DNA of 64,000 bases from contig JAUVXV010000002.1 in NCBI GenBank assembly GCA_030603365.1, forward strand, positions 128,001 through 192,000, written 5' to 3'. The translations under genes were made by a program, and so were the position numbers. Source of the DNA: Candidatus Heimdallarchaeota archaeon (lineage in GTDB: Archaea > Asgardarchaeota > Heimdallarchaeia > Heimdallarchaeales > Heimdallarchaeaceae). Every line of letters begins with the position of its first letter. The stretch's first letter is position 1. The notes below the pieces were generated by a model. That model saw only the letters and a list, made by a program, of their open reading frames with translations, searched no databases and had not been told where the DNA came from. Shown one piece after another: positions 648-17,236 of this stretch.

Positions 648-2807
648 ATGAGAGAAATGTTTAACAAAGAATCTTCCAAAAAAATCATAGCAAGTCTTGT
701 CCCCTTTGTTCTTGGGTTAATTCTTGTATTGCTTTTTGTCCTCAAATCTCTTAATCCTTTAATCTGGGGGTTAATTGGAAGTTTATTTGTTTTTTCATGT
801 ATAGTTTCTATATGGGTTAATAATCAAAATTTTTTATCTCTAATAGTAATATTTGTTTATCAAATTGTTCTGAAGATTCCATTACACTTCAAAAATCTAT
901 TATATGTTTTTCAACCTGATGAAGCTTATCATTTAGGTTATTCAATGATACTTTCTTTTAATCAACAGTCATTACCAGTTGAAAGGATGATAGGATATAC
1001 TCCTTTTCCAATTCTAGATTTGATAGTTTCTAAATTGATATTAGCGATTGGTTTCTCAAATACTATAATTGCTGTAAAAATTGTAAATTCAATTTTGGTG
1101 GGACTTATCACAGTTTATCTAGCAGATAAAACCTTTCAAATTGTTTTTCGAGAAAAAAAGAGATTAGCTACATTTATTTTCGCATCTTGCTATAAGTTTC
1201 TCTTTTTTTCTTCACTCTATGTTTATGAAGCTCTCACTTTCATGTTGTTTGTTTTTGCAACTTATATCATAGTGTCATTGTATTGTTCAAAAGGTTCTAT
1301 AAAGCATTTTAAACTAAAAAAAACGTTTAAATATCTTGCTTTAATAGCTGTTTTTTCTTTATTAGGATTTTGGCACTATTTTTCCTACTTTCTTGGTTTT
1401 TTCTTAATTATATTGTTTTTCATCACGCAAAAAGAAACATTGAAGCTTGGAGATCAAACTAGAAGGAGAAGCTTAAAAAGTAAAATTCTGAATAATCTTT
1501 CTGTTATATGTATAACATTAATTTTGATAATCGCATTAAATATATGGGTGATGATAAGCAGTAAAGCAAGAGGGCAAGTAGGAAATTATTTCTATTCTTC
1601 GTTATCAAGTTTAAAAATTATTGAAGTATTAGGGGATTTAATATCACCTTATTCAAGAACGTTTTTGATAGTTATCGAAGCAAGTTTATTATTATTCATT
1701 TTTGTCGTAGGTGTTATTATAAAAAAATTAATAACAATTATTGCCAGAAATAAAGATAGTCTAACTTCAGTTTTGAATGTCAAAATATATCTGTTATTTT
1801 CAACAATCGCCATAGGTATAAGTTCAGCAATTTATATAGGATATTCAAAAAACATAGTTGGAGGATTAAACACAACTCAAAATCTCGGAATACTTAGTTA
1901 TCTAGCAATTCTTGGGTTATTGTTTTTCGTTTTCAATGTTTTGATATATCCCCTAATTGCAAGAAAAGGAAATATTCTTCTTAATTCGTTTTATATATTA
2001 TTTACACAATTAACTCTTATTTTTGCGTATTTAATTGTAAAAGATATCTACAATAGAATTTCTCAGATTGAAGGGACAGATACATTTTCTAGCACAATTC
2101 GTATAATCAATGAATTAAGTTATAGATTAATACCTTATATTATCTTTTTTGGTTGTATGTTTTTTATGTTTTATGAGAAATATTTTGTTAGATTATCAGA
2201 ATATATTAGAAAAATCTCTGTACATATTAGTACTTATGTTTTTAGAAAATTAAAAATAAAGAATAATGGAAAACGTAGAGTTTTTAATTTCAAAAAACTT
2301 GCATCAACAAGAAATTTGACTGTCATTTTTATATTTTTATTTTCTATTCAATCTATAGCATTCTCACCTTGGCAAATCTATCATTCAGAACTGAATTTAC
2401 CAGAAGATGACTTATATTTAGTTTCAAAATGGTTACGTTATAATTTAGATCAAACAACTGAATTTATTTTCGTTGAATATATGTATAGATCAATTGCAGC
2501 ATATTCGTTCTTAAATGTTCCAAATCTGGAAGAAAAAGCAGCAGATATTATACTGGGAATGTACTATCAAAGGGATTTAGAGTTAGTAATAAACATTCTG
2601 AGTAATTTCAGTTGCTTCTACTTTATATTTGATTTAGTAGGACTAGATGCTGAATTTATGACAAAAATTGCAAGAGATAAATACTTAATTTCATTTTACA
2701 ATATTGATCCAGAAGTTTTAGAATGTTATAATGATAGTATTCCAGTGAATGAAGAAATACTCACTGTATTTAGTACTGATACTCTACTAGTTTTAAAAAT
2801 CATATAG
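648..2807 (+). CDS. Polytopic membrane protein, probable GT-C fold glycosyltransferase or polymerase
   Basis: Many TM segments, acidic PDEAYH loop after the first TMs, C-terminal soluble domain (DDLYLVSKWLRYN), located in a glycan cluster. Confidence 0.55.
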   Translation: MREMFNKESSKKIIASLVPFVLGLILVLLFVLKSLNPLIWGLIGSLFVFSCIVSIWVNNQNFLSLIVIFVYQIVLKIPLHFKNLLYVFQPDEAYHLGYSMILSFNQQSLPVERMIGYTPFPILDLIVSKLILAIGFSNTIIAVKIVNSILVGLITVYLADKTFQIVFREKKRLATFIFASCYKFLFFSSLYVYEALTFMLFVFATYIIVSLYCSKGSIKHFKLKKTFKYLALIAVFSLLGFWHYFSYFLGFFLIILFFITQKETLKLGDQTRRRSLKSKILNNLSVICITLILIIALNIWVMISSKARGQVGNYFYSSLSSLKIIEVLGDLISPYSRTFLIVIEASLLLFIFVVGVIIKKLITIIARNKDSLTSVLNVKIYLLFSTIAIGISSAIYIGYSKNIVGGLNTTQNLGILSYLAILGLLFFVFNVLIYPLIARKGNILLNSFYILFTQLTLIFAYLIVKDIYNRISQIEGTDTFSSTIRIINELSYRLIPYIIFFGCMFFMFYEKYFVRLSEYIRKISVHISTYVFRKLKIKNNGKRRVFNFKKLASTRNLTVIFIFLFSIQSIAFSPWQIYHSELNLPEDDLYLVSKWLRYNLDQTTEFIFVEYMYRSIAAYSFLNVPNLEEKAADIILGMYYQRDLELVINILSNFSCFYFIFDLVGLDAEFMTKIARDKYLISFYNIDPEVLECYNDSIPVNEEILTVFSTDTLLVLKII

Positions 2808-4028: not shown

Positions 4029-5153
4029 CTAATCTAGCAATCTCATAAATATGTCATCAGAGAGAAAGTAGTTTACAACATTTTCCATTGTAACTGAAAT
4101 AGGGTATTGAGGTTTGTATCCTAATTCTTTTTTAGCTTTTGAATAATCACAAACTAATATATTTACCTCTGTTGGTCTGTATCGCGATTTGTCGATTTCA
4201 AGACGATAGTCAATATCAAATAATGAAGCTGTAAGTTTAGCAAGATTTTCAATTGATATTCCATATCCATGACCTAGATTGTATACTTCACCCTTTGTGC
4301 CATTTAATATTGCTAATATGTATCCTTGAATCATATCTCGAATGTCTGTAAAATCTCTTATTGGTTTAGGGTTACCAATTCTAATAATTCTAGTTCCTTT
4401 CTTAATTGCTCCTGCCACTTGGCTAGCAATAACAGATGTCACGAATTGTAAACCTCTTTTTGGACCTGTATGGTTAAAACCTCTTGTTATTGTAACTGGT
4501 ACACCATATGCTCTAAAGTAAGTGAGTGAATACATTTCTGTAGCGACTTTACTAACTGCGTACGGTGATTGAGGTCTTAATGGATTGTTTTCATTAATTG
4601 GTATTTCATGTGGATGAACTAGTCCATATTCTTCACTACTACAAGCAACTTGCATGCATTGAAGATCAATGTTTTTTTTTCGTATTACTTCTAGTAAATT
4701 GACAGTTCCCTGAATGTTTGTGTGAATTGATTCAATTGGAGCTTTAAAGGATGTTGGGACAAAAGATTGAGCTGCTAAATGAAAAATATAATTTGGTTCT
4801 ATTTCAGTAATAGCTGATTCAAGAGAAGGGTAATCTATTAAATTTGCTTCTTTTAATATCACCTGATCTGTTATATTTCTTATATTTGGAAAAATTGGGA
4901 CAGATTGCCTTCTTACAGTACCGTAAACCTCTATATTCTCATCTAGTTCAACCAGTTTTTCAGCTAAATGACTTCCAACAAAACCAGTTATCCCAGTTAT
5001 TAAGATTCTTGAATCTGCCAATTTATTCCTATCGAAAAGCTCCTTTTTTTCCTTATCAAATTCTTGTAGATATATATCTATACAATCAGGATTTATTAAC
5101 AAATCTTTATATTTTTCATTAATCTCCTCAAAGAACTTATCTTCATTATTCAT
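4029..5153 (-). CDS. gmd: GDP-mannose 4,6-dehydratase-like SDR (Gmd/Rmd group)
   Basis: ITGITGFVG, HLAAQSFV, SSEEYG, YAVSK; adjacent to fcl. FNHTGP is Rmd-like rather than the canonical Gmd FNHESP. Confidence 0.75.
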   Translation of the reverse strand: MNNEDKFFEEINEKYKDLLINPDCIDIYLQEFDKEKKELFDRNKLADSRILITGITGFVGSHLAEKLVELDENIEVYGTVRRQSVPIFPNIRNITDQVILKEANLIDYPSLESAITEIEPNYIFHLAAQSFVPTSFKAPIESIHTNIQGTVNLLEVIRKKNIDLQCMQVACSSEEYGLVHPHEIPINENNPLRPQSPYAVSKVATEMYSLTYFRAYGVPVTITRGFNHTGPKRGLQFVTSVIASQVAGAIKKGTRIIRIGNPKPIRDFTDIRDMIQGYILAILNGTKGEVYNLGHGYGISIENLAKLTASLFDIDYRLEIDKSRYRPTEVNILVCDYSKAKKELGYKPQYPISVTMENVVNYFLSDDIFMRLLD

Positions 5154-5247: not shown

Positions 5248-6195
5248 TTATTTTGTTTCAGATTTGTTGTTCAAATACCATTCATATGTTTTGACTATAC
5301 CTTCTTTCAAGGTTGTTTTTGCCTGCCACCCTAGGTTATTAATTTTGGTTATATCTAAAAGCTTCCTTGGAGTTCCATCAGGTATTGAAGTGTCATATGT
5401 TATATCACCTTCATAGCCAATAATACTTTTAATCAGAATTGCTAGTTCTTTTATTGATATGTCTTTTCCTACTCCTATATTTATCAATTCGGATGAAGAA
5501 TAATTGTCTATTAAAAATATACAAGCTTCTGCTAAATCATTTATGTAAAGGAATTCTCTTTTTGCTGAACCTGTCCCCCACAATTCAACAGATGGAATCT
5601 GGTTCTCTTTTGCTTCATGTATTTTCCTTATTAATGCAGGTAATACATGAGAAGTTTTTAGATCAAAATTATCTCTAGGACCATAAAGATTAGTTGGCAT
5701 TGCTGAGATGAAATTTGTTTCATATTGTTTATTATAAAACTGGCACATTTTAATACCTGCTATTTTCGCAATTGCATAAGCTTCATTTGTAGGCTCCAAC
5801 GAACCAGTAAGCAGATACTCTTCTTTTATTGGTTGTTCTGCGAATTTTGGATAAATGCAAGAGCTTCCTAAGAAAAGAAGTTTATTTGAAGAAAATTTGT
5901 ACGCAGAATCAATAATGTTTGATTGAATCATTATGTTATCATAAATAAATTCTGCAGGAAACGTTTTATTAGCAAGTATCCCTCCAACTTTCGCTGCGGC
6001 TAAAACAACATAACTAGGTTTTTCACTTCTAAAAAATTCAATTACTTTGTTTTGATTTCTGAGATCTAAATCCTTACTAGTTCTAGTGATTATATTTGTA
6101 AAACCTTTTTCTAATAACTTTTTTTGTATTGATGAACCAACCAGTCCATTATGCCCAGCTATGTAAATTGAGTCTTCTTTTTTCATGTATAACAC
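5248..6195 (-). CDS. fcl: GDP-L-fucose synthase
   Basis: AGHNGLVGS, AAAKVGGI, LGSSCIYP, YAIAK, MPTNLYGP, WGTGSAKREF, PDGTPRK. Confidence 0.96.
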   Translation of the reverse strand: MLYMKKEDSIYIAGHNGLVGSSIQKKLLEKGFTNIITRTSKDLDLRNQNKVIEFFRSEKPSYVVLAAAKVGGILANKTFPAEFIYDNIMIQSNIIDSAYKFSSNKLLFLGSSCIYPKFAEQPIKEEYLLTGSLEPTNEAYAIAKIAGIKMCQFYNKQYETNFISAMPTNLYGPRDNFDLKTSHVLPALIRKIHEAKENQIPSVELWGTGSAKREFLYINDLAEACIFLIDNYSSSELINIGVGKDISIKELAILIKSIIGYEGDITYDTSIPDGTPRKLLDITKINNLGWQAKTTLKEGIVKTYEWYLNNKSETK

Positions 6196-6228: not shown

Positions 6229-7584
6229 TTATTCAATTTTTCTATCTCTGTATTTCAATCTACCTTTCTTAATGGAAAGAACAATACATATTCCAGAGAG
6301 AATTAAAGTAGATATGAACCAAGAGAAATTCACAGAAATTAAGTTAAATATAGGTTTGAAGATAAAAATACTTGCAAAATACAATCCAGTTTGTAGTGCA
6401 AACAGTATTTGAAGTAATCCTCTTTCGTTTCTTTGTCGTAATGCTGATATGTATATGAGAAATAGAGAGAGAGGATAAATTGATAACAAAATGAGTAGGA
6501 AAGACCAGAAATAGACCATAGAAAATTCTAAACCAAAAAGACCAATAATGAACTTCTGTAAAGCTAACAATGGAATAATTATTATTGTATCGATAATAAA
6601 TGCAAATTTAAATCTTGAGAGTAGCGTTTTAAGAGTTGTATCTCTTCTCTCTGTTATTAGAACAAAAGACAAAGAATTAGGAAACGAAGCTAACATACCC
6701 AGTATCGCCCAAGAGATATATATAAAAGCAGCATCTTCTGTATTGAAGAGTTTTATTACGATAGGGGTAGTTAGAAGCATTGGTAGAGATTGAATTAATG
6801 TTCCTGTATAATTATTAAATGAGAAAGAAACAAACTTCCGTAGTGAAATACTTTCTCCTTTCTGGGTTTGCGTTTCTGACTTTTCTCTCTTTTTGAATAT
6901 AATGAATAATAAAGTAGCTACAACACTGATTAGTTGAGAAGTTCCCCATACTATAAGCATACTTATTTCAGTATTATGAATATTAGAAAATACTATCAGA
7001 AAAATTCCAGAGAATAAAGACACAGTAAAAATGGCTTCCTTAATTAGCAGAAAATATGGGCTTTTTATCCCTACAAGTATATCATCAAATATAAGGAAAA
7101 GTGACACTATTATAGTAGTTAACAATGTCAAGAAAAACCAATTTGTTTTGCTTATATCTAATAGTTCTCTTAAGTAATTAAAAGTACTAACAAAAACTAA
7201 GGCTGCAATGAAATTAAGAGATAAAGGAATTAAGGAAATTGAGAACAATTGCTTTTTTCTAAAAGAATATAATGGAAATTTTAGAAACGCAGTTTGGATT
7301 CCAAACATCGCAAAAATAGCCCCTAATCTTAGAACAGAAACAACTGAGGACAATACTCCAACACCATCAGCCTCAAAAAAATACCCAATAACTATCCAAA
7401 AGATAAAAGCAATCGCACTACGAAATCCTATTGTAATAAAGCGAAGTATTGTTGCTTTATATACATCTTGTTTCCAATATTTATTGATATTATTAATAAC
7501 ATAATTCTGCATGAAACTCTTCAATTTTAAGCATCTTCCATTCGAAGTTACCATAAGAAATTTAAGTTTCGAATTTTCTTCCAA
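6229..7584 (-). CDS. Oligosaccharide flippase (Wzx/RfbX, MOP superfamily); true start may be about 7512-7554
   Basis: About 12 TM segments, polysaccharide-export pattern, glycan cluster context. Confidence 0.8.
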   Translation of the reverse strand: MEENSKLKFLMVTSNGRCLKLKSFMQNYVINNINKYWKQDVYKATILRFITIGFRSAIAFIFWIVIGYFFEADGVGVLSSVVSVLRLGAIFAMFGIQTAFLKFPLYSFRKKQLFSISLIPLSLNFIAALVFVSTFNYLRELLDISKTNWFFLTLLTTIIVSLFLIFDDILVGIKSPYFLLIKEAIFTVSLFSGIFLIVFSNIHNTEISMLIVWGTSQLISVVATLLFIIFKKREKSETQTQKGESISLRKFVSFSFNNYTGTLIQSLPMLLTTPIVIKLFNTEDAAFIYISWAILGMLASFPNSLSFVLITERRDTTLKTLLSRFKFAFIIDTIIIIPLLALQKFIIGLFGLEFSMVYFWSFLLILLSIYPLSLFLIYISALRQRNERGLLQILFALQTGLYFASIFIFKPIFNLISVNFSWFISTLILSGICIVLSIKKGRLKYRDRKIE

Positions 7585-8338
7585 ATTTCTTATAGTTCCA
7601 AGTTCTACCTACATGTTCTGTTTTACTTATAATCTTCTTATCTTCTCTAACATAAATCCACTTTTTCTGCGGGATTTGCCAATTATCACCATAATAATAT
7701 GCTAAATATTCTTCAGAATTTTGAGGAATAAGAAAATCCATATCATAGAATTTAGTATTCTCTAGACTTAGAAAATATTTACTTGGTGTAACTACCAATC
7801 CTCTTCTGTTACCTGTTTTACTAGCTAAAGTGTTTAAAAAAGAAGCTGTTTTTAGTTTCAAGAATTCAGGAATTAAATCTGTCATTTTTGATCCTATAAA
7901 TTTTATAATTTTCATAGATGAATTAAAAGTTTCTTTGTTAAGTTTTCCAGAATGAGAAAATAGCACTATCCAATTTAATGATGCAAGAACAAAGCCAATT
8001 TTATTTTCAATATATCTTAAAGGAGCAATTACTTCATCCTCTTTCAACCTCCAGAAGACAAGTTGAACATCAATTTCTCCTTTTCTAATCATCATCACAT
8101 TATGATAGACTGAAAAATAGGTTTCATACCCATGCTCACAAAATTCTTTATTCAGTTTTTTCATTTTAGGCATATAAGTATCCCAGGTTCCTAAATCTAT
8201 GTCATAATCCCACTTGATGAAAGCTCCTTCTCTAATAGCACCAAGCAGAGTTCCTGATTCTAACCAAAATTCAACTTCATTTGTTTCTAGAATTTTCTTG
8301 ATTAATTTCAGAGCTTCCACTGCGTCAAATTCTTCCAT
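7562..8338 (-). CDS. licD: LicD/fukutin-family nucleotidyl-activated phospho(no)transferase
   Basis: FWLESGTLLGAIREGAFIKWDYDIDLG and YLAYYYGDNWQIP motifs. Confidence 0.9.
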   Translation of the reverse strand: MEEFDAVEALKLIKKILETNEVEFWLESGTLLGAIREGAFIKWDYDIDLGTWDTYMPKMKKLNKEFCEHGYETYFSVYHNVMMIRKGEIDVQLVFWRLKEDEVIAPLRYIENKIGFVLASLNWIVLFSHSGKLNKETFNSSMKIIKFIGSKMTDLIPEFLKLKTASFLNTLASKTGNRRGLVVTPSKYFLSLENTKFYDMDFLIPQNSEEYLAYYYGDNWQIPQKKWIYVREDKKIISKTEHVGRTWNYKKFGRKFET

Positions 8339-8796
8339 TTATTTTCACTTAGTAGCGTATATACAAATTAAACAAATTTCAATTTATTTAATTATTATGG
8401 TATGGCGTGTCTATTTTTTTATATCTCTCGTATTTTAAAAAACAACTGCTTGTTTCTTTATATTTGATAGATTTTCTTCTAATCTTATTTTACAATTTTC
8501 TTTGACACCATTTCAAGTATAGGTGAGGGTTTTTCATGAGAAAGATGAAAAAACAGAAGTCTGAAGAAAAAGTTAAAAATGAATTTCAAGAATAAAAAGG
8601 GATACTTAAATATAAGAAAATGAGTGTTAAAAAAGAGATGTTTGTAATAGGTGTTATTTTAGAGAACTTCTGAACAAGTTTTATACTTAAATTAATATAT
8701 ATATATTTATGAGATATAATTAAGGAGAAATGAATCTATGTATTTTAAATTAATAGACTATCTAAGCTAAAATCATCTAGAATAAATGGTGGAACA

Positions 8797-9906
8797 ATGA
8801 ATATTGCATATTACATCTCATCTTTTGGATTAGGTCATACTTCTAGAGCAATACCCATTATCCAGAGATTGAAAGCTGAAAATAAGGTTTTTGTTAAATG
8901 CACTTCTTTGAGTATGAACTCTATTAGAGGTAATATACAAAATCAAGATAATCTATTTATTTTTAAGAAAATAAACGATTTATGGTTAAAATATAGATAT
9001 AGTGAACCATTAATTGAAGAAAGTATTGATGAAGCTTACACTTTCTATGAGAATTTGTATGAAAAAATAATTGATCAAGAGAAGAAATTCATTCAAAATA
9101 ATAAAATAGATCTGATTATATCAGATATTGCTCCTTTCCTAGATAAGGTTAGTAAAGAGAACAATATTCCTATTATTGGTATTAGTAACTTTGATTGGGG
9201 AGTGCTTTTCAATCATTTATATGAGAAATATCCATATAGAAAACTAGAAAGAATATCTCAAAGGCTCTCAGATTCTTTTGAATCATATGATCTTCAAATT
9301 GCTTTACCTCTTAATAAAAATCTACTAACTAATAAGAACAGAAAGAAGGTAGGATTTTACACAAAATTAGCAACTAGAAATAAACAAGAGATTTTCAAAT
9401 TACTAAACTTAAAAAATGATTTAATGACGGTTTTCCTTTCTTTAGGAATGTCTATAGATTTGCCATTGGAGACATTTAAAGAAATATTTCTGGAAACTGA
9501 TTATCAAATAGTTGCATCAAATAGAAACAAAATAAAAAATCAATCAAATTTTAAGTTTGTTCCTAAAGGTGATTTTAAAGTTCAAGACTATATTTCTGCA
9601 TCTGACATCTTTATAGGAAAACCAGGCTGGGGATCATTAAGCGAATGCTATTGTTTTTCAATTCCAGCGATTTTAATAGAATTTGGCGAGAATTTAGAAT
9701 GGCAGATTATGATTAATGAATATATCAATTTCAAACCAAATACTTCCAAAATATCTTTCTCTGAATTGAACAGAAAAAACTTAAATAGACTGATTGAAAA
9801 AGCACGAAATACAGAAGAAATAAAAATTGAAGAAAAGTATTCAAAGGCATTGAAAATAAGTAACAAGACTCTTAATGAGATATATAACATAATAAGTGAA
9901 TTTTAG
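8797..9906 (+). CDS. GT-B fold glycosyltransferase-like protein (GT1/GT28-related, similar to arabinokinase N-domain)
   Basis: GLGHTSRA, SDIAP, SNFDW, KPGWGSLSE motifs; first gene upstream of the phosphonate operon. Confidence 0.65.
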   Translation: MNIAYYISSFGLGHTSRAIPIIQRLKAENKVFVKCTSLSMNSIRGNIQNQDNLFIFKKINDLWLKYRYSEPLIEESIDEAYTFYENLYEKIIDQEKKFIQNNKIDLIISDIAPFLDKVSKENNIPIIGISNFDWGVLFNHLYEKYPYRKLERISQRLSDSFESYDLQIALPLNKNLLTNKNRKKVGFYTKLATRNKQEIFKLLNLKNDLMTVFLSLGMSIDLPLETFKEIFLETDYQIVASNRNKIKNQSNFKFVPKGDFKVQDYISASDIFIGKPGWGSLSECYCFSIPAILIEFGENLEWQIMINEYINFKPNTSKISFSELNRKNLNRLIEKARNTEEIKIEEKYSKALKISNKTLNEIYNIISEF

Positions 9907-9999
9907 ATTCAGAAAATTCTATAATAAGTTTAGGATTTATATACCAAGGTTCTAAAGATACTCTTTTAATATCTGCATCAAATTTTTATATGATTTAAA

Positions 10000-11301
10000 A
10001 TGTCAACTGTTTATGTAGCTTTGAGTGCAGATTTTATTCATGCTGGACATATTAATATCCTGAAGACAGCAAGAGAACTAGGTGATGTAATTATAGGTTT
10101 GTTAACTGATGAAGCTATTGCAACATACAAACGATTACCAGTTTTAGATTATGATCAAAGGAAAATGTTAGTGGAAAATATAATAGGTGTATCTAAAGTT
10201 ATACCTCAAGAAACGTTAGATTATACAGAAAACCTAAGAGAAATCAAACCAGATTATGTTGTTCATGGTACTGATTGGAGAACTGGAGTACAAAAAATAA
10301 CCAGAGAAAGAGTAATAGAAATCTTGAAAGAGTGGGGAGGGAAGCTTATAGAACCAGAATATACTGAGAATTTATCTTCATCAGATTTAATACGAGATAA
10401 ATTTGGAATTGGGACTACTCCTGATGCTAGAATGAAGAAATTAAGAAGATTAATCAATCTCAAACCTTTAGTGAGAATTATAGAAGTTCACAATGGATTA
10501 ACTGGAAGAATAGTGGAAGAAGTTAAGATTACAGAAGGCGAAACTATTCGAGAATTTGATGGAATGTGGATAAGTAGTTTAACTGATTCCACTGCAAAAG
10601 GAAAACCAGATACCGAGTACGTAGACATTACATCAAGATTACAGACGATAAATGAAATTTTTGATGTAACAACAAAACCCCTTATTCTTGATGGAGATAC
10701 TGGTGGTTTACCTGAGCATTTCCATTTAACTGTAAGAACTCTTGAACGCTATGGAGTTTCAGCAGTTATCATTGAAGACAAAATTGGTCCAAAAAGAAAT
10801 TCATTATTTGGTGCAGATGTTCAACAAACACAAGATACAATTGATAATTTTAGCTTTAAGATAAATATAGGTAAAAAAGCTCAAATTACTGAAAGCTTTA
10901 TGATTATAGCAAGGATAGAGAGCTTCATACTTAAAAAGGGATTAGAAGATGCTTTGAAAAGAGCAAAAGCATATATTGAAGCTGGTGCAGACGGTATAAT
11001 GATTCATAGTAAAGAGAAGACTCCAAAAGAGATATTAGATTTCTGTGATGAATATTCAAAATTTGAAAAAAAAGTTCCTCTTGTCGCTGTTCCTTCAACT
11101 TTCAGTACAATAACTGAGGATGAGTTGATTGATGCTGGAGTAAAGATTGTAATTTATGCAAATCATCTACTACGTAGCGCATACCCTTCTATGATTAAGA
11201 CAGCTAAAAGTATTTTAATGAATCGTAGATGTCATGAAGCTTCTGAGGTAAATTGTATACCAATAAAAGAAATTATTAGATTAATACCAGGAGCAGAATA
11301 A
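10000..11301 (+). CDS. pepM: Phosphoenolpyruvate mutase with N-terminal cytidylyltransferase domain
   Basis: PepM signature EDKxxxxxNS ([10 protein letters not shown]), DGDTGG; N-terminal HxGH (HAGH) CTase domain. Confidence 0.97.
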
Positions 11302-12431
11302 TGAAATGCGAAGAGCTCTGGAAGATTTTCAAAGATGAAAATTTGACTTTTTTTACTGGTGTTCCCGATTCTACATATAAATCGTGGATGAGTTTTTTGG
11401 ATAACAAAACTGGGAAGGGTCTAACAAATATTATAGCAAGTAATGAATGTGAAGCCATTGGGATAGCAGCAGGATATCATTTAGCTACAAATGAGGTAGG
11501 GATTGCTTACATGCAAAACGCGGGATTAGGAAAAACAGTGAATCCCATAACATCTTTAGCAGATAAAGAAGTATATTCAATACCAATGTTGCTTTTGATT
11601 GGATGGAGAGGAGAACCTGGAAAAAAAGATGAACCCCAGCACAAGAAAATGGGGAGAATTACACTTCCTTTACTTAATGTTTTAGAGATACCTTACTCTA
11701 TCCTTCCATCTAACGAAGAAGAAGCTAGAATGACAATAAAAACAGTAAAAAATAAAATAAAAAATAATAATTCTCCTTATGCATTGATAGTCAAAAAAGG
11801 AACATTAGATCCTTTTATCTCAACAGATATTGAAGAAGAAGAAGAATATGAATTAAGGAGAGAAGAAGTCATTAAAATCATTATTGATAATATCAAAGAC
11901 AAATATGTCATTGTAGCAACCACTGGAAAAACGTCAAGAGAACTATTTGAAATCAGAATGATGAGAAAAGAACAGCCTAAAGATTTTTACACAATTGGTT
12001 CAATGGGATGTGCGTCCTCGATTTCTTTAGGAATTGCTTTGAATTCTTCTAAAAAAACGCTAATTCTAGATGGAGATGGAGCTACTCTTATGCAAATGGG
12101 AACATTAGCAACGATTGGATATTATAAGCCAGAAAATCTCCATCATATAATATTTGATAATCATTGTCATGAATCCACAGGAGGGCAGCCTACAGTCTCT
12201 AAAATTGTTCAATATGATAAAATAGCGTTATCTTGTGGATATAATTCAACTAAAACAATATTCAATAGAAAAGAATTAATGAATTACATAAATGTAATTG
12301 ATAAAATTAAATGTCCTAGTTTAGCAATTATTAAAGTAAGAAAAGGTTCAAGATCAGATTTAGGTAGACCTACAATTACACCCTATGAAAACAAAATAAG
12401 TTTTATGAAACTATTCCAAGATGAGACATAA
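11301..12431 (+). CDS. ppd: Phosphonopyruvate decarboxylase
   Basis: FFTGVPDS, MQNAGLG, DEPQH, GSMG, TPP motif DGDG...NHCHESTGGQPT, DLGRP; TAATG overlap with the pepM stop. Confidence 0.96.
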   Translation: MKCEELWKIFKDENLTFFTGVPDSTYKSWMSFLDNKTGKGLTNIIASNECEAIGIAAGYHLATNEVGIAYMQNAGLGKTVNPITSLADKEVYSIPMLLLIGWRGEPGKKDEPQHKKMGRITLPLLNVLEIPYSILPSNEEEARMTIKTVKNKIKNNNSPYALIVKKGTLDPFISTDIEEEEEYELRREEVIKIIIDNIKDKYVIVATTGKTSRELFEIRMMRKEQPKDFYTIGSMGCASSISLGIALNSSKKTLILDGDGATLMQMGTLATIGYYKPENLHHIIFDNHCHESTGGQPTVSKIVQYDKIALSCGYNSTKTIFNRKELMNYINVIDKIKCPSLAIIKVRKGSRSDLGRPTITPYENKISFMKLFQDET

Positions 12432-12452
12432 CCATAATAAGAAGGTGAATGA

Positions 12453-13607
12453 ATGGAGGAGTACTATAATCCAGTAAAAATTGTATTTGGGTCATCATCT
12501 CTAAATCAAATAGGAAAAATAGTAGAAAAATATAAACTCAATAATAAAATCCTCATTATATCTGGTAAAACTATGAGAGAGCTTGGAGTAATACAAAGAA
12601 TTGAAACTATATTAGAGAAAAATGAAAATGTAGTAGAAACTTTCGAAAAAGTATTTGCTAATCCTACTTTTAGATTAATAGATGAAACAACTCTTTTAGC
12701 TAGAAGAGGCGAATATGGGTTGATAATTGGTATAGGAGGAGGATCCTCTCTTGATTGTGCGAAATGCACTGCAATCTTATCAAAAAATGAAGGAAATATA
12801 TCAGATTATTTATTCAATTATAAAAATATCACAAATTCTGGAATCCCTTTCATAGCAATTCCTACAACTGCAGGAACAGGGAGTGAAGTTACTATGTGGG
12901 CAACAGTTTGGAGAAATGATGATGAGTTCAAGAAAAAATACTCGATGTCGGATAAGAAAATGTATGCAAAAGTAGCAATAGTAGATCCTGAGTTAACTTT
13001 GAGTCTTCCTCCTTACCAAACAGCAATAACTGGTTTAGATGCGCTTTCTCAAGCTATTGAGGCATATTGGTCAAGAAATCACAATCCGACATCAGATAAA
13101 CATGCTCTTGAAGCAATATCATTAATCTTTAACAATGTTGAAATAGCTTTCAAAGATTCTACTAATCTAGAAGTCAGAGAAAAAATGCTATTTGGTAGTT
13201 TGGAATCAGGGTTAGCATTTAGTAATACAAAAACAACAGCTGTACATTCTGTTTCATACCCTATAACCGCTTTGTATAATGTACCTCACGGTTTAGCTTG
13301 TGCATTAGTTTTAGGGAGTTTCCTTGTATTTAACTCCAAAGTATGTAATGAAAATCTTCCAGAAGCTTCAGATAGAATAGAAAAAATCGTTGAATGCCTA
13401 GATTCTCAAAATGCATTAGAAGCTAAAGAAAAAATCGAAAATCTAATGAAGAAAATGAATCTTCCTACAAAACTTAGTGAACTAGGTATTGATGAAAATG
13501 GTATAGATTTAATCATTAAGGAAGGTTTTACTAAAGGAAGGATTGAAAATAATCCAAGAAAAGTTACTAAAAATGATTTATATAAAATACTAATAAATTT
13601 ACTTTAG
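12453..13607 (+). CDS. Phosphonoacetaldehyde reductase (group III Fe-ADH, PhpC/FomC-like)
   Basis: GGGSSLD, PTTAGTGSEVT, DALSQAIE, TTAVHSVSYP, PHGLAC; directly after ppd. Confidence 0.88.
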   Translation: MEEYYNPVKIVFGSSSLNQIGKIVEKYKLNNKILIISGKTMRELGVIQRIETILEKNENVVETFEKVFANPTFRLIDETTLLARRGEYGLIIGIGGGSSLDCAKCTAILSKNEGNISDYLFNYKNITNSGIPFIAIPTTAGTGSEVTMWATVWRNDDEFKKKYSMSDKKMYAKVAIVDPELTLSLPPYQTAITGLDALSQAIEAYWSRNHNPTSDKHALEAISLIFNNVEIAFKDSTNLEVREKMLFGSLESGLAFSNTKTTAVHSVSYPITALYNVPHGLACALVLGSFLVFNSKVCNENLPEASDRIEKIVECLDSQNALEAKEKIENLMKKMNLPTKLSELGIDENGIDLIIKEGFTKGRIENNPRKVTKNDLYKILINLL

Positions 13608-13618
13608 GTATCAGTAAT

Positions 13619-14362
13619 ATGAAAGCACTAATATTAAATTCAGGTGTTGGAACAAGATTAAAACCAACAACAAATTTATTGCCAAAATGTTTGATTGAGA
13701 TAAATGATCAGACTATTTTAGAACGCCAACTTAATGCATTAAAACAGATTAACATTCACGATTATATAATAACAACTGGACCTTTCGAAGAGAAATTAAT
13801 TGGTTTTGTAAATGAAAAATTCAAAGATTTAAATGTAACATATGTTAAAAACACTTATTACGATACAACTAACTATATTTACTCTATTTGGCTCGCTAGG
13901 AATAAAATTGACGATGATATTTTACTTCTTCATGGTGATCTAGTGTTTGATCCATCGCTTCTAGAACGTTTAATTAACACAAAAAGTAATAACTATATTT
14001 TAGTTAATAATACAATTCCTCTACCCAAAAAAGATTTCAAAGCTTTGGTATTAGATAACAAAATAAAGAAGATAGGAGTAAATTTCTTCGGGGAAAACGT
14101 ATATTTCTGTGCCCCACTTTATAAAATAAAAAAAGAAACAATGAAGATTTGGATTAAGAAAATGAATGAGTTCATAAAAAATGGAAAAGTAGCAAGTTAT
14201 GCAGAAGATGCACTAAATGAAATCACTGATCAAATAGATCTTCTACCCTTGTACTACACTAAAGAATTCTGTATGGAAATTGATTCACATGAAGACCTTA
14301 AAATAGCAAAAGAATACTTCCATAAGGACAAAAATGTATCTAAAAACAAAAGAAAGCAGTAG
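13619..14362 (+). CDS. LicC/PntC-like phosphonate or phosphocholine cytidylyltransferase
   Basis: LNSGVGTRL..PKCL, TNYIYS, LHGDLVFD, MEIDSHEDL; last gene of the phosphonate operon. Confidence 0.85.
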   Translation: MKALILNSGVGTRLKPTTNLLPKCLIEINDQTILERQLNALKQINIHDYIITTGPFEEKLIGFVNEKFKDLNVTYVKNTYYDTTNYIYSIWLARNKIDDDILLLHGDLVFDPSLLERLINTKSNNYILVNNTIPLPKKDFKALVLDNKIKKIGVNFFGENVYFCAPLYKIKKETMKIWIKKMNEFIKNGKVASYAEDALNEITDQIDLLPLYYTKEFCMEIDSHEDLKIAKEYFHKDKNVSKNKRKQ

Positions 14363-14475: not shown

Positions 14476-15525
14476 TCATTCTTGCATGAAATATTTCCAA
14501 TATAGGATTTCATCTTCACCTAAATCTTGCAGAATTTTCTTCCCCAGTATTAAGTCATAATAAGTTGGATCAATTCCTTTTCCTGGTCTCTTTGTGGTGA
14601 TGTCATCAGCTGTAATCACTTGTCCTTTTTTCAATGCTTTAGCTGTAACTATTGATCTTCTCGCATTTTTCCTTGCTGGTAACTCTGCATTAATAATTCT
14701 CTTCTCCTCATCTCCTAGAATTTTTGTAACAAGTTCAACATTATCTGAAAGTAGTTTTAGGTCTTGAGGATCCATTGCATGGTAATGATCATTTCCAGGA
14801 AGAGTTTTATCTAGAGTAAAATGCTTTTCTAGAACAGATGCACCCATCAGATGAGCAACTATCAGAGTAATCATAGCTTTATCTGGTTTAGTGTGATCTG
14901 AATACCCTACAAGATTTTCTGGAAAGATTTTCTTTAGATGCTTTATCATTCGAAGATTGGCATCTTCAAACTTTGTTGGGTAGCTCAGAATGCAGTGCAA
15001 CGGGACTATAGGCACATTTTCAACCACTTTGATCGTTGTAATCGCATGCTCTATTTCTCCCAAGGTTGCTGCGCCAGTTGATAGGAAAATAGGTTTCTTT
15101 TTCTCAGCGATATAACGCAAGAAAGGTATATTGGTAATATCAGCTGAAGCAATCTTATAAAGTGGAACTAGTGGGTCTAGAAAATCTACTGCATTATTAT
15201 CGAAAGGAGTTGACAGAAAGAATATTTTGTTTCTTTCCGCTTCTTTAGCTAAATCTCTATAATCATCCTCTTCAAAAGTGTCATATTGTTTGAAAAAATC
15301 CCTTTGGGTTTTGTTTGTATCCCAATATGCTGGAGAATCTTTAGCAGCGATAGTCTCAGCTTTGTATGATTGGAATTTGATTGCATCTGCACCGTTTTTA
15401 GCTGCTTCCCTCACCATTTCTAGAGCTGTTTCCATGCTGTTTTCGTAATTAACACCAGCTTCTGCAATGATGAAAGGTTTTCCACCTTCTTGGATAGTTC
15501 TATCTCCAATCTTCAAGCTTTTCAT
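14476..15525 (-). CDS. neuB: Nonulosonic (sialic-like) acid synthase, NeuB/PseI/LegI family, with C-terminal SAF domain
   Basis: IIAEAGVN, KFQSY, STPFD, KIASAD, LHCILSYPT, GYSDHT, EKHFTLD, ARRS, KRPGKG. Confidence 0.93.
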   Translation of the reverse strand: MKSLKIGDRTIQEGGKPFIIAEAGVNYENSMETALEMVREAAKNGADAIKFQSYKAETIAAKDSPAYWDTNKTQRDFFKQYDTFEEDDYRDLAKEAERNKIFFLSTPFDNNAVDFLDPLVPLYKIASADITNIPFLRYIAEKKKPIFLSTGAATLGEIEHAITTIKVVENVPIVPLHCILSYPTKFEDANLRMIKHLKKIFPENLVGYSDHTKPDKAMITLIVAHLMGASVLEKHFTLDKTLPGNDHYHAMDPQDLKLLSDNVELVTKILGDEEKRIINAELPARKNARRSIVTAKALKKGQVITADDITTKRPGKGIDPTYYDLILGKKILQDLGEDEILYWKYFMQE

Positions 15526-15532
15526 ATGATTT

Positions 15533-17236
15533 CTACTCTGGTGGTATATTTAAGATATTCGAAGGGAATTTTTCATCGTAGTGGTCAAAAATAGTTCTCA
15601 AAACGCGTTTGATTCCACTTCTTAAATCATAGCGAAGATGAGATTTGTTCATCTCTAATCGTTTAGAATAATCTTCTAACAATAATTTCAATTCTTGTTC
15701 TATTTTTGAATCAATTTGTTCATCTGCTAATCCAAGATAGGTTACACCTGGTGCTTCTTCTGCGAAAGTATGGAGGGTTTCTCGTTCATTTTGGGCTATA
15801 GTGATACATGGTACTCCAATCGCAGCAATTTCAAAGACTGTTCTACCATTGGAAGTTATCGCTAAATCAGCCTTGTACATGTGTTGAGACATGAGTTTTA
15901 CATCTTGAAACACATTTATCTTAAAACCAGATTTATTCATCACAGAAGCGAGTTTTTGGATGTTTTCTAGCGATTTGTAACCTAATCCCAATATAAGAGT
16001 TATATCAATGTCTTTCAACTGTAGTTTTTCTATTGTTTTCAGACAAGTTTTAGAGAGATTGTTTTGATCGACTCCCCCAAAGGTAATTAGGATGTTTTTT
16101 ACTTCTTTCTCTATTGTTTTAAATGGGACAAGATGAAATTCATCTCGCAAACATAGGTACTTGTATCCGTTGAAAATATGATCTTGTTTATCTTCAGTAT
16201 CTGTAGCATTGACAGCATTAAACACTAAATCTGCTTCTTTTAAACCAGCTGCTAAATCTTCAAAAGTTACTAAGAAGGGGTTATAGGATTTTATTTGTTG
16301 AAGATAATTTTCTTCTGTGTCAAGAATATCTATTAGAATAATATCAGGGTCATTATTTTCTATAACTTTGAAGAATTCTTCTTCCTTCTCAATCTCTACT
16401 ACTTCGAAGTTCTGAGAATATACTTTTGCTAATCCTAACTTTGATGATTTCTTAATTACAAATTTAACATCGTGTTCTAGTAGATTATTTGCTATTGTGA
16501 TCATTCGATAAATATGCCCCATTCCTATTTCATTATCTCCATCTACTCGTAAGAGAAACTTCTTTCTAGAGAGTATTTTTTCTGCTAATGTCCAGTCAAG
16601 ATAATTATCGATATCTATCCCTTCTAATTCGGATAGTTCGAAAATCTCCAGCGGTTCGACCATCCTTGTACTTTCTGTTACAATTTCTGATTTAGAGATA
16701 ACAAATCCACCTGTTTCAAAAAATACTGGTTCAAGTTGCCGCCTATTCAATCTTTTAGGATAATAAGGAGATAATTGCTTATCCTTCTTCTCCCAGAAAA
16801 GATGTTGTGTTGGAATAACAGAAATCATTGACGAACTATTTTTTTCTACAAACTTCTCTATTGCTTTATCTAATGAACTTGTTTTTAATAATGGACTAGT
16901 TGGTTGTAGAGTGATAATTATATCAAATTCTGTATTCGATTGTTCTTGATAAGCTTTGTAAGCATGATAAATAACGGGATCTAAAGTTGTTTGATCTTGA
17001 GCTAAATCTGAAGGACGTTCTATAATCTTATCTGCACCAAAAATGTAGGAGATGTTTCCGATTTCACTATCATCTGTAGTTACAACTGTTTTATCAATGT
17101 ATTTTGATTTCTTAGCTGTTTTGATGATGTAAGCAATTAGGGGGTTCCTATTTAGAAATCTAATATTTTTTCTAGGAATTATTTTCGAACCTCCTCGAGC
17201 AGGTATTATAGCAAGTATTCTCTTATCTTTATACAC
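15533..17236 (-). CDS. Fusion of acylneuraminate cytidylyltransferase (NeuA/PseF) and PseG/SpsG-like nucleotide-sugar hydrolase
   Basis: N-half IPARGGSK..PRKN, LQPTSP, DID; C-half RVDGDNEIGMGHIYR, ITFGGVD, AQNERE. Confidence 0.88.
   Translation of the reverse strand: MYKDKRILAIIPARGGSKIIPRKNIRFLNRNPLIAYIIKTAKKSKYIDKTVVTTDDSEIGNISYIFGADKIIERPSDLAQDQTTLDPVIYHAYKAYQEQSNTEFDIIITLQPTSPLLKTSSLDKAIEKFVEKNSSSMISVIPTQHLFWEKKDKQLSPYYPKRLNRRQLEPVFFETGGFVISKSEIVTESTRMVEPLEIFELSELEGIDIDNYLDWTLAEKILSRKKFLLRVDGDNEIGMGHIYRMITIANNLLEHDVKFVIKKSSKLGLAKVYSQNFEVVEIEKEEEFFKVIENNDPDIILIDILDTEENYLQQIKSYNPFLVTFEDLAAGLKEADLVFNAVNATDTEDKQDHIFNGYKYLCLRDEFHLVPFKTIEKEVKNILITFGGVDQNNLSKTCLKTIEKLQLKDIDITLILGLGYKSLENIQKLASVMNKSGFKINVFQDVKLMSQHMYKADLAITSNGRTVFEIAAIGVPCITIAQNERETLHTFAEEAPGVTYLGLADEQIDSKIEQELKLLLEDYSKRLEMNKSHLRYDLRSGIKRVLRTIFDHYDEKFPSNILNIPPE

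Follow-up and report, generated by a model that had tools for sequence, protein, structure and literature searches.

Known systems closest to the cluster

One of the closest counterparts of the cluster examined here is the Pnt pathway, described by Rice et al. (2019, PMC6697681) in Treponema denticola, Atopobium rimae and Olsenella uli. Both have a fusion of PEP mutase (PepM) with a nucleotidyltransferase and, one or two genes from it, a further cytidylyltransferase of the PntC type. Glycan genes and LicD-like transferases lie nearby in both, and the same flow is proposed, from a CMP-phosphonate through LicD to a cell-surface glycan (PMC6697681). The two differ in the phosphonate itself. The Pnt bacteria make 2-aminoethylphosphonate (AEP) with a class-V aminotransferase and carry Glu104 in PntC, whereas the Asgard cluster has a PhpC-type reductase and a histidine at that position.

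The fused enzyme also resembles Fom1 of Streptomyces wedmorensis, in which a PF01467 cytidylyltransferase likewise lies N-terminal to PepM, and for which 2-hydroxyethylphosphonate (HEP) is a demonstrated substrate (Cho et al. 2017, as cited in PMC6697681). In the fosfomycin pathway, CMP-HEP is a transient intermediate that is methylated by Fom3 and hydrolysed by FomD. No such genes were found for the Asgard cluster, where CMP-HEP is instead the proposed transfer donor.

Two further systems share the PepM-Ppd-PhpC core. Stackebrandtia nassauensis and Glycomyces, both actinobacteria, represent one of the only two HEP-type families from which, according to PMC8942020, a product has been isolated. 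In this published description, their HEP is esterified to an exopolysaccharide. The archaeon Nitrosopumilus maritimus (Metcalf et al. 2012, as cited in PMC8942020 and PMC9381506) has a nucleotidyltransferase, a glycosyltransferase and a sulfatase-like gene beside the core, and its product is carried as an ester on a surface polymer. There, according to the same citing sources, MpnS converts HEP to methylphosphonate, while no MpnS/HepD was found for the Asgard cluster. Lastly, the lic system of Streptococcus pneumoniae (LicA/LicB/LicC/LicD) also pairs a LicC-type enzyme with a LicD that acts on a lipid-linked cytoplasmic glycan before flipping. In contrast, the Asgard cluster is without a choline kinase or choline transporter and draws its headgroup from a C–P bond-forming pathway.

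Organisation of the locus

The window, the whole 64,000-nucleotide stretch analysed, contains two divergent gene sets:

4029..5153, minus strand: NDP-sugar 4,6-dehydratase, called gmd in the first-pass annotation (PF16363, E 8e-75)
5248..6195, minus strand: GDP-L-fucose synthase (Fcl)-like epimerase/reductase (NF047922, 486.8 bits against a cut-off of 500)
6229..7584, minus strand: Wzx/MOP-type flippase, highly divergent (hhalign, TM prediction)
7562..8338, minus strand: LicD-family phospho(no)transferase, cytoplasmic, candidate HEP transferase (PF04991, 55.9 bits against 22.6)
8339..8796, no strand: divergent intergenic region, 458 bp, 23% GC
8797..9906, plus strand: GT-B fold glycosyltransferase (MJ1255/VC2487-like), 369 aa (weak PF13528 and TIGR00661)
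10000..11301, plus strand: bifunctional Fom1-type cytidylyltransferase (residues ~3–130) and PEP mutase (~145–432) (TIGR02320, PF01467, PF13714)
11301..12431, plus strand: phosphonopyruvate decarboxylase, Ppd/AepY (TIGR03297, 440.6 bits against a cut-off of 312.5)
12453..13607, plus strand: PhpC-type Fe/Zn alcohol dehydrogenase (Fe-ADH), predicted phosphonoacetaldehyde reductase making HEP (PF00465, PF25137)
13619..14362, plus strand: LicC/PntC-type small-headgroup cytidylyltransferase (PF12804, PF00483)

The four genes at 10000–14362 form a tightly packed operon on the plus strand. The PepM stop and Ppd start overlap as TAATG, and the next gaps are 21 and 11 nt. LicD, the flippase, Fcl and the 4,6-dehydratase all run the other way, and promoters for both sets are presumed to lie in the intergenic region. 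The gene content of the surroundings marks about 50 kb as a glycan island. The first-pass annotation had described a single operon divergent from licD-flippase-fcl-gmd. The genes lie at the coordinates it gave and score strongly, but its 'gmd' is not canonical and the GT-B gene had been missed.

The latter separates LicD from PepM, from which it lies 93 nt upstream. It scores 22.7 bits with PF13528 (under the cut-off) and 26 bits with TIGR00661. It has an N-terminal GLGHTSR motif, and an Atlas lead points to GT families. It is absent from a syntenic genome of the same genus (G039) and from every other PepM locus examined, and is an insertion specific to the host genome.

We consider that this Asgard archaeal locus is probably a phosphonyl-tailoring cluster of the Pnt type, HEP branch, embedded in a large island of surface-glycan genes. 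Its parts are present and intact, their order is conserved, and LicD is linked to PepM both statistically and physically. The proposed chemistry is modelled on characterised relatives: cytidylylation of HEP on Fom1, reduction on PhpC, and transfer out of CDP-type donors on LicD and FKRP.

Proposed route from PEP to HEP

PEP mutase would convert PEP to phosphonopyruvate, and decarboxylation by Ppd to phosphonoacetaldehyde would pull this unfavourable reaction forward. A PhpC-type dehydrogenase would then reduce phosphonoacetaldehyde to HEP. The complete pathway to HEP claimed in the first pass is borne out in that the enzyme set is intact in sequence and the four-gene core is kept in relatives.

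PepM is single-copy in the host genome, and the fusion scores 399.8 bits with TIGR02320 (cut-off 319.55). Its domains match PF01467 (E 5.7e-16, 59 bits) and PF13714 (E 9e-56), with HAGH at residue 14 and a ten-residue motif at residue 259. The N-terminal domain aligns with the HEP cytidylyltransferase domain of Fom1 (PDB 5x3d) at E 2e-53, with 85 of 128 positions identical (66%, counted from the alignment). Identity to this domain is 58–77% among other HEP-branch fusions and 44–59% among AEP-branch fusions. Since 66% falls inside the first range and above the second, it counts for the HEP branch.

The reductase assignment has evidence on both sides. The best NCBIfam match of the Fe-ADH, TIGR03405, reaches 265.7 bits, under its cut-off of 423.7, and other Fe-ADH models score nearly as high, which counts against the assignment. 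The closest solved relative is 6jko/6jkp (E 5e-56), of which 6jkp is a sulfoacetaldehyde reductase (PMC13576164), and its Asp/Gln/His/His metal ligands are kept. Sulfoacetaldehyde is isosteric with phosphonoacetaldehyde, so this nearest relative suggests the predicted reductase role.

Proposed transfer by LicD and the nature of the acceptor

In the proposed cytoplasmic transfer step, LicD would use a hydroxyl group on the sugar of a lipid-linked glycan precursor to attack CMP-HEP at the phosphonate phosphorus, releasing CMP and leaving an HEP phosphonate ester on the sugar. The adjoining Wzx-type flippase would then export the decorated unit.

LicD retains the invariant D44-x-D46-x-D48, the G-T-L-L-G-A-x-R block and the C-terminal block, and no TM segment is predicted in it. 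It matches FKRP in sequence (E 7e-8) and has the FKRP fold in an AF2 model (pLDDT 71), whose top Foldseek matches are all FKRP (probability 1.0, TMq 0.51). We know of no LicD so far shown to accept a CMP-phosphonate donor.

Within the phylum, LicD occurs in only 6 of 400 genomes, four of which carry a copy no more than about 5 kb from PepM. It is present in 4/42 PepM-positive and 2/358 PepM-negative genomes (Fisher odds ratio 18.7, p = 0.0014, with relatives not being independent). Across several phyla, 13 of 56 loci have LicD within 10 kb of a CTase-PepM fusion. The remaining 38 of the 42 Asgard PepM loci have no LicD and bear other candidate transferases; LicD is thus not a universal partner.

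The flippase ORF has no match in Pfam or NCBIfam searches. Its translation probably begins at the ATG at 7554, with 7 nt between it and LicD. Eleven TM segments are predicted, an Atlas lead points to PF01943, and hhalign against the Pfam-verified Wzx of related PepM loci gives a probability of 96.6% (E 5.7e-10, 384 columns). As for the sugar genes, a canonical Gmd was rejected for 4029–5153, which scores 154 with TIGR01472 (cut-off 415) and best, at 194 bits, with the LegB-type TIGR04180. It is the sole match to the gmd model, and the genome as a whole yielded no canonical Gmd. The HEP-decorated glycan of the first-pass annotation is supported as far as computation can test it, and LicD tracks PepM. 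Fucosylation rests on Fcl and a non-canonical dehydratase, and the acceptor could be a glycolipid.

The same chemistry acting on a glycolipid or membrane lipid, in the manner of the LicD-family enzyme Mf1 from Mycoplasma, would give a phosphono-glycolipid, but this is an unlikely outcome. The glycolipid cholinephosphotransferase Mf1 is the top NCBIfam match of LicD (61 bits over the full length), though far under its cut-off, and CDP-alcohol phosphatidyltransferases in related Asgard loci suggest phosphonolipids there. However, a transferase of that kind was not found in this genome, the Wzx-type flippase, Fcl and glycosyltransferases follow LicD directly in conserved synteny, and the surrounding 50 kb is glycan island throughout.

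Two cytidylyltransferases

Either the PepM-fused Fom1-type domain or the standalone PntC-like enzyme, or both of them, would join HEP and CTP into CMP-HEP. The cluster thus holds two cytidylyltransferases for one predicted reaction, and the simple model leaves the second without explanation.

The orthogroup profile of the standalone enzyme matches LicC (1jyk, E 1e-22) and PntC (6pd1, E 2.5e-16), both over the full length. His105 occupies the position of Glu104 in AEP-specific PntC, where the glutamate contacts the AEP amine (PMC6697681). Of 32 HEP-branch enzymes from Asgard archaea, 31 have His at this position, and AEP-branch enzymes have Glu (3/3 from Asgard archaea, 14/15 from bacteria). 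The swap follows the division between HEP and AEP clusters, and is presented here as new.

These data bear on a classical lic-type pair, in which the LicC-like enzyme would make CDP-choline or another CDP-alcohol for transfer by LicD, and HEP would go to a different, unrecognised transferase or stay a small molecule or lipid headgroup. LicC, the best solved match, is a CTP:phosphocholine cytidylyltransferase, and LicC with LicD is the textbook pair. We nevertheless regard this reading as rather unlikely. The orthogroup belongs to the four-gene phosphonate core of at least 30 Asgard loci, nearly all without LicD, which ties its role to the phosphonate rather than to LicD, and the residue at its headgroup position changes from one phosphonate branch to the other. 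Tyr-Trp-Asp of LicC aligns with Tyr-Ala-Glu, so that the Trp by the headgroup-contacting acid is lost, which is weak evidence. Neither licA nor licB was found in the window. Weak choline-kinase-family matches elsewhere in the genome are partial, on other contigs, and paralleled in 9 of 14 control genomes. Finally, the LicD of the phylum mostly adjoins PepM.

Fate of HEP

The first pass had noted that the window contains no AEP transaminase or MpnS, and had called for a genome search for aepZ and mpnS. The same now holds for the whole genome, which is 89% complete, so that absences there fall short of proof. With a family member from a Woesearchaeota locus as query, MpnS/HepD gave no match at E <= 1 in the host genome, while positive controls worked, and none in 400 genomes of the phylum. 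The AEP transaminase model drew only generic class-V enzymes under its cut-off. Searches of the genome turned up no TauD-type dioxygenase, no close radical-SAM enzyme of the Fom3 type, no TagF-like, CDP-alcohol or sulfatase-like transferases of the kinds in related loci, no phosphonatase above cut-off and no C-P lyase. That no HEP-diverting enzymes were found counts for the HEP-branch reading.

Conversion of HEP or CMP-HEP by an unrecognised enzyme to methyl-, hydroxymethyl-, dihydroxyethyl- or hydroxypropyl-phosphonate before transfer is accordingly very unlikely. Related non-Asgard loci do carry MpnS-like genes, full-size (L041) or half-size (L097, L099, L108, L055), a TauD-type gene (L042) or B12 radical-SAM genes (8 viral loci); the incomplete genome and orphan ORFs in the window, such as a soluble 486-aa ORF at 37318–38778, leave room for such an enzyme. 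Yet these three families went undetected in the genome, and the 486-aa ORF lies 23 kb from the operon and draws no match from PDB sequences, even at E 10. A fosfomycin-type small-molecule natural product is scarcely credible, despite the hallmark Fom1-type fusion, given that Fom3, Fom4, FomD-type, NRPS and ligase genes were not found, that the cluster is embedded in glycan genes, and that ~24% of all PEP mutases bear a cytidylyltransferase fusion, mostly in surface-tailoring clusters (PMC6697681).

Distribution in Asgard archaea

PepM was detected in 42 of 400 Asgard genomes. The loci are HEP-type in 35 of these, and none has MpnS/HepD. An Fe-ADH adjoins PepM in 35 of the 42 loci, never alongside an AEP transaminase, and orthologs or homologs of the standalone nucleotidyltransferase occur in 37. 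For bacteria, the logic of such a pathway is already in the literature (PMC6697681, PMC8942020, PMC9381506), with Rice 2019 for phosphonyl tailoring and Li & Horsman 2022 for the HEP branch. What is new is the frequency of PepM and of HEP-type loci without MpnS/HepD in Asgard genomes. The predicted HEP/CMP/glycan pathway is common in these archaea, and apparently has not been reported for the group before.

The arrangement is shared with G039, where GT4-dehydratase-Fcl-Wzx-LicD diverge from PepM-Ppd-FeADH-NTP-NeuB. LicD likewise adjoins PepM there and is 73% identical, compared with 66% for the flippase, 80% for Fcl and 77% for the syntenic 4,6-dehydratase.

Genomic setting of the cluster

A surface-glycan island fills the whole window. 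Its glycosyltransferases are GT2, GT4 and GT87 enzymes, and it also carries a NeuB and a PseF-PseG fusion, a pyruvyl transferase, a second Wzx, a UDP-glucose dehydrogenase, a PIG-L deacetylase and a hexapeptide acyltransferase, together with a group of sulfur genes (two cytoplasmic sulfotransferases, one ASST-type sulfotransferase, CysQ, Sat-CysC and two TauE proteins). No radical-SAM, 2OG-dioxygenase or cupin genes were found in the window. The genome to which the island belongs (G000; window G000:C15:128001-192000) comprises 3.65 Mb in 17 contigs, is 89% complete and has a GC content of ~32%. It encodes an ESCRT-II (Vps25-type) protein above the Pfam cut-off, a protein for which none of 14 control genomes gave a match. 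The features considered here are as follows.

Features of the phosphonate cluster and its divergent neighbours
4029-5153, minus strand, NDP-sugar 4,6-dehydratase (LegB-type model, 194 bits)
5248-6195, minus strand, Fcl-like gene (NF047922, 486.8 against a cut-off of 500)
6229-7584, minus strand, start probably at 7554, 11-TM Wzx-like protein (profile-profile comparison)
7562-8338, minus strand, LicD (PF04991)
8797-9906, plus strand, GT-B-like open reading frame (GLGHTSR motif, weak MJ1255/VC2487-family match)
10000-11301, plus strand, CTase-PepM fusion, 433 aa (PF01467 and TIGR02320)
11301-12431, plus strand, phosphonopyruvate decarboxylase, Ppd (TIGR03297)
12453-13607, plus strand, Fe-ADH (PF00465 fold; TIGR03405 the top model, below cut-off)
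13619-14362, plus strand, standalone NTP transferase (NTase), 247 aa

The first-pass annotation described a four-gene operon for 2-hydroxyethylphosphonate (HEP), and CTase-PepM, Ppd, Fe-ADH and NTase were all found on the plus strand between 10000 and 14362. The operon is compact, with the stop of PepM overlapping the start of Ppd (TAATG) and later gaps of 21 and 11 nt. The same annotation read the divergent genes as licD, flippase, fcl and gmd. This order holds, but the identification of gmd does not, as the dehydratase scores 154 with the Gmd model against a cut-off of 415. The named genes were thus present, but the list had left out the GT-B-like open reading frame 93 nt upstream of PepM. 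Among the PepM loci compared, this open reading frame is found in G000 only; the syntenic locus of a same-genus relative (G039) lacks it and has a LicD-PepM gap of ~100 nt. A jackhmmer search returned no homologues among 56 PepM loci, and the GT-B-like gene is therefore not evidenced as a regular part of phosphonate clusters. GC content dips to ~27% around this insertion.

Predicted route from phosphoenolpyruvate to CMP-HEP

The PepM assignment is firm. The protein scores 399.8 bits with TIGR02320 (401.2 in a genome-wide scan) against an equivalog cut-off of 319.55. At residue 259 it carries the motif EDKxxxxxNS, which distinguishes PepM from its isocitrate-lyase relatives (PMC6697681) and occurs in 51 of 51 fusion proteins compared. 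The fused CTase domain (PF01467, 59.4 bits against 21) has HAGH, its HxGH nucleotide-binding motif, at residue 14, and among solved structures it comes closest to the Fom1 domain 5x3d (E 2e-53; 85 of 128 residues identical by hand count). Identity to the corresponding domain of other PepM fusions is 58-77% for HEP-branch loci versus 44-59% for loci of the 2-aminoethylphosphonate (AEP) branch. Fom1 is the enzyme shown to form CMP-HEP (Cho et al. 2017, as cited in PMC6697681), and the fused domain is predicted to be a Fom1-type HEP cytidylyltransferase with the same product.

Ppd is also well matched by its own model (TIGR03297, 440.6 against an equivalog cut-off of 312.5) and has both TPP domains, PF02776 and PF02775. 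The Fe-ADH is assigned less directly. Its top model, TIGR03405, gives 265.7 bits, below the cut-off of 423.7, and ErcA (258) and other Fe-ADH models score close to it. This model is a narrow test of PhpC, since PhpC enzymes share a mean identity of only 39% (PMC13576164). The solved structure nearest to the Fe-ADH is 6jko/6jkp (E 5e-56), and the Asp, Gln, His and His metal ligands listed for these structures in PMC13576164 are all kept within the PF00465 fold. The structure 6jkp, a sulfoacetaldehyde reductase from B. kashiwanohense, served as the PhpC structural reference in that 2026 study.

Gene neighbourhoods point the same way. Among 42 Asgard PepM loci, 35 have an adjoining Fe-ADH and three, all from a single genus, have an AEP transaminase; the two never occur together, and they are likewise mutually exclusive in 56 PepM loci from other phyla. 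Both are missing from the remaining four Asgard loci, of which three are on short or truncated contigs; the fourth, in the Asgard genome G234, also lacks a Ppd match. Neither a phosphonatase above cut-off nor PhnJ was found in G000, and the Fe-ADH is hence not catabolic.

HEP as the predicted final phosphonate

The first-pass annotation named HEP as the product because the window holds no AEP transaminase or methylphosphonate synthase (MpnS), and the genome-wide searches agree. No protein of G000 reaches the TIGR03301 or TIGR02326 cut-off: the search for an AEP transaminase found only two generic class-V enzymes, both on other contigs, at 208 and 158 bits against 360.8. These two score equally well with unrelated class-V models and are 27-29% identical to a cluster-borne AEP transaminase; genuine Asgard AEP loci reach 50-53%.

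MpnS and HepD were sought with a Woesearchaeota protein, L041:12136-13353, whose solved relatives include MPnS 6b9s (E 1e-48) and HEPD 6b9r (E 7e-34). As controls, the query recovered itself in its own genome at E 1.8e-283 and relatives at 33-38% identity in four other loci, half-size forms included. It gave no match at E <= 1 in G000 (tblastn best E 2.7) and none in 400 genomes of the phylum. The Cupin_2 model, a weak test for this family, found only three small cupins in G000. TauD-type dioxygenases and Fom3-type B12 radical-SAM enzymes were also not detectable in this genome, though they are present in related loci. To the extent that an 89%-complete genome allows, the predicted final phosphonate is thus HEP. 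A soluble 486-aa protein with no Pfam family (37318-38778, minus strand), encoded between a TauE transporter and the UDP-glucose dehydrogenase, was weighed as a hidden HEP oxygenase; even at E 10, no PDB sequence resembled it.

A second cytidylyltransferase and its headgroup marker

The standalone NTase belongs to an orthogroup found in Asgard four-gene cores at 42-52% identity. The orthogroup profile matches LicC 1jyk (E 1e-22, positions 2-237) and PntC 6pd1 (E 2.5e-16, positions 2-230), in each case along the entire protein. Sugar-1-phosphate enzymes score below both, and most of them align only to the N-terminal 65-120 positions.

In Tde-PntC, Glu104 and Glu196 contact the amine of AEP (Rice et al., PMC6697681). 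The window enzyme has only one of the two residues that mark an AEP-specific PntC: Glu196 corresponds to an invariant E196, and L-E104-S-D106 aligns with L-H105-G-D107, such that His105 replaces Glu104. Glu occupies this position in 14 of 15 bacterial AEP-branch enzymes and in those of all three Asgard AEP loci, and in none of the HEP-branch enzymes compared. The residue is His in 30 of 31 members of the Asgard orthogroup and in the Asgard genome G009, and Leu in another, G225. The PepM-fused PF12804 domain does not track the branch in this way, reading Y-[IL]-N-S-D-I in AEP-branch and most HEP-branch loci. Because the His/Glu residue follows the HEP and AEP branches, the standalone NTase appears to read the phosphonate headgroup. 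It is better classed as a HEP-type than as an AEP-type PntC, acting in a PntC-like manner on a different headgroup. Such a marker would separate HEP-type from AEP-type tailoring by sequence alone, and offers a one-residue mutagenesis handle on headgroup specificity.

The cluster has two cytidylyltransferases, the Fom1-type domain and the HEP-type NTase. Clusters with two such enzymes have been noted by Rice et al. (PMC6697681) and by Li & Horsman (PMC8942020), in both cases without explanation. On a less likely reading, the second activating enzyme could signal a product larger than one HEP ester. It might be a teichoic-acid-like oligomer of HEP units, conceivable since a donor phosphorus and an acceptor hydroxyl are both present in CMP-HEP, or it might include a second activated headgroup.

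LicD and the proposed acceptor glycan

LicD (PF04991, 55.9 bits against 22.6) is the only candidate transferase class found in G000; TagF-like, CDP-alcohol and sulfatase-like transferases, which are present in related loci, were not detectable. Its D44-x-D46-x-D48 motif, invariant in 17 PepM-linked LicDs, aligns with the WDYDVD stretch of FKRP, and it carries an invariant G-T-L-L-G-A-x-R block. FKRP is also matched by sequence (E 7e-8) and by structure: the AF2 model (pLDDT 71 overall, 87-97 across most of residues 1-100) returned FKRP for all ten best Foldseek hits in the PDB, at probability 1.0 and TMq 0.47-0.51. LicD has no TM segment and should therefore act in the cytoplasm, ahead of the Wzx step.

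The association of LicD with PepM is statistically marked. Of 400 genomes of the phylum, 42 have a PepM above its cut-off and six have a LicD-family member, four of the six being PepM-positive. LicD thus occurs in 4/42 PepM-positive versus 2/358 PepM-negative genomes (odds ratio 18.7, Fisher p = 0.0014), a count that exceeds the number of independent events, as three of the four genomes belong to one family. In all four (G000, G039, G013 and G009), LicD lies within ~5 kb of PepM. Outside the phylum, LicD is found less than 10 kb from the same PepM fusion in Bacteroidales, Fibrobacter, Clostridium and Alkaliflexus, and a 'lipopolysaccharide choline phosphotransferase' is one of the usual neighbours of pepM-aepY-phpC according to Lockwood et al. 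(PMC9381506). If LicD instead transferred phosphocholine, a choline kinase might be expected; a PF01633 search gave partial kinase-fold matches, on other contigs only, and control genomes match too. LicD is best regarded as a candidate HEP transferase, which would move the phosphonate from CMP-HEP to a sugar hydroxyl.

The Wzx-like protein has no direct Pfam match. Comparison by hhalign with Pfam-verified Wzx proteins from related loci gave a probability of 96.6% (E 5.7e-10), and hydropathy predicts 11 TM segments, close to the ~12 helices of Wzx/MOP proteins. The dehydratase is non-canonical, with its best score from the LegB-type model, and the Gmd model has no second match anywhere in G000, so that a fucosylated glycan is a plausible inference. 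NeuB and the PseF-PseG fusion (14476-17236, minus strand) lie in the same island as this LegB-like enzyme, which may on both grounds serve a nonulosonic-acid route in addition to, or in place of, GDP-fucose. At the edge of the island, 648-2807 (plus strand) encodes a 719-aa protein that matches neither a Pfam nor an NCBIfam family and for which ~15 TM segments are predicted; it may act as a polymerase or in the manner of an oligosaccharyltransferase.

Significance for Asgard archaea

The cluster is of the HEP-branch phosphonyl-tailoring type, a kind already known, and the overall reading of the first-pass annotation is supported, with all of the chemistry predicted from homologues. What is modestly new is the presence and prevalence of such clusters in Asgard archaea, the lack of MpnS/HepD across the phylum sample, and the His/Glu headgroup marker. 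HEP-type clusters make up 8.5% of neighbourhoods in complete bacterial genomes, and Ppm occurs in 1.6% of archaeal genomes (PMC8942020). An isolated product is available for just two HEP-type gene-cluster families (PMC8942020).

A broader proposal seems to us unlikely: that Asgard archaea are commonly HEP-coated, that they always employ at least two cytidylyltransferases, one from an uncharacterised HEP-specific PntC subfamily defined by the Glu-to-His change, and that their product possibly extends beyond a single HEP ester. Its first element draws on the occurrence of PepM in about one in ten Asgard genomes, in clusters that are overwhelmingly HEP-type and without MpnS/HepD.

Asgard archaea are the closest prokaryotic relatives of eukaryotes, and the contacts they make with partner cells lend interest to their surface. 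If the HEP-decoration prediction for the cluster holds, this surface bears a hydrolysis-resistant C-P decoration. Phosphonates are a large, poorly sourced pool of organic phosphorus, to which sediment-dwelling Asgard archaea would then contribute HEP esters from a source not counted so far. By abundance, HEP ranks among the top two phosphonates of marine high-molecular-weight dissolved organic phosphorus (PMC8931226). The literature searched, whose coverage is incomplete, yielded no paper that connects Asgard archaea or Lokiarchaeota with phosphonate biosynthesis, and the phosphonate surveys consulted name no Asgard producers.

Diversity of related PepM loci

In a quick IQ-TREE analysis with SH-aLRT support only, the window PepM falls in a clade of seven Asgard sequences (99% SH-aLRT) beside Woesearchaeota, and Asgard sequences form at least three separate groups. 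A standalone NTase homologue is present in 37 of the 42 Asgard PepM loci. Their candidate downstream transferases are varied: sulfatase-like in 14, TagF-like in 12, CDP-alcohol in seven and LicD in four.

One large Asgard family (L091-L094, L143-L167; e.g. L092:9572-11281) has a PepM of ~565-585 aa with a C-terminal PF12804 domain. It keeps the standalone HEP-type NTase and often adds a third NTase, with the motif FTYSDI. Many of these loci encode an MFS transporter and a sulfatase-like protein, and some a CDP-alcohol phosphatidyltransferase, which suggests a phosphonolipid or another acceptor.

Potential modifying enzymes occur in several lineages. The MpnS/HepD-family protein of Woesearchaeota (L041:12136-13353, JAGVXT010000021.1; 405 aa) is encoded directly downstream of CTase-PepM and NTase, in a locus with no Ppd or Fe-ADH match in the stretch examined. 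Half-size MpnS-like open reading frames adjoin CTase-PepM at L097:8212-8838, L099:983-1609, L108:2942-3595 (viral) and L055:7851-8456 (SAR86); their similarity to the MpnS-like protein (33-38% identity) is confined to its N-terminal half, residues ~15-240. In another Woesearchaeota locus, two TauD-family dioxygenases (L042:11304-12176 and L042:13341-14348) are interleaved with PepM, NTase, Ppd and Fe-ADH, and are candidate hydroxylases of HEP or a related phosphonate.

PepM is also found on 42 contigs classed as viral (L095-L136, IMG/VR), mostly as CTase-PepM followed by a split Ppd (~129 + 156 aa). The best ~450-aa candidate on these contigs, L102:8343-9569, is not MpnS. Eight of the 42 encode a B12-binding radical-SAM protein as well (e.g. 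L097:6050-7591), which could act on CMP-HEP in the manner of Fom3.

Homologues of the TagF-like CDP-glycerol glycerophosphotransferase are found in the 12 Asgard loci noted above and in others; L045, L046, L048 and L094 are among the loci that carry them. The gene lies directly 3' of a HEP-branch Fe-ADH in Arenibacter (L045, e.g. L045:13573-14763) and in L048. It is tempting to speculate that these proteins polymerise HEP, given the free hydroxyl that CMP-HEP offers alongside its donor phosphorus.
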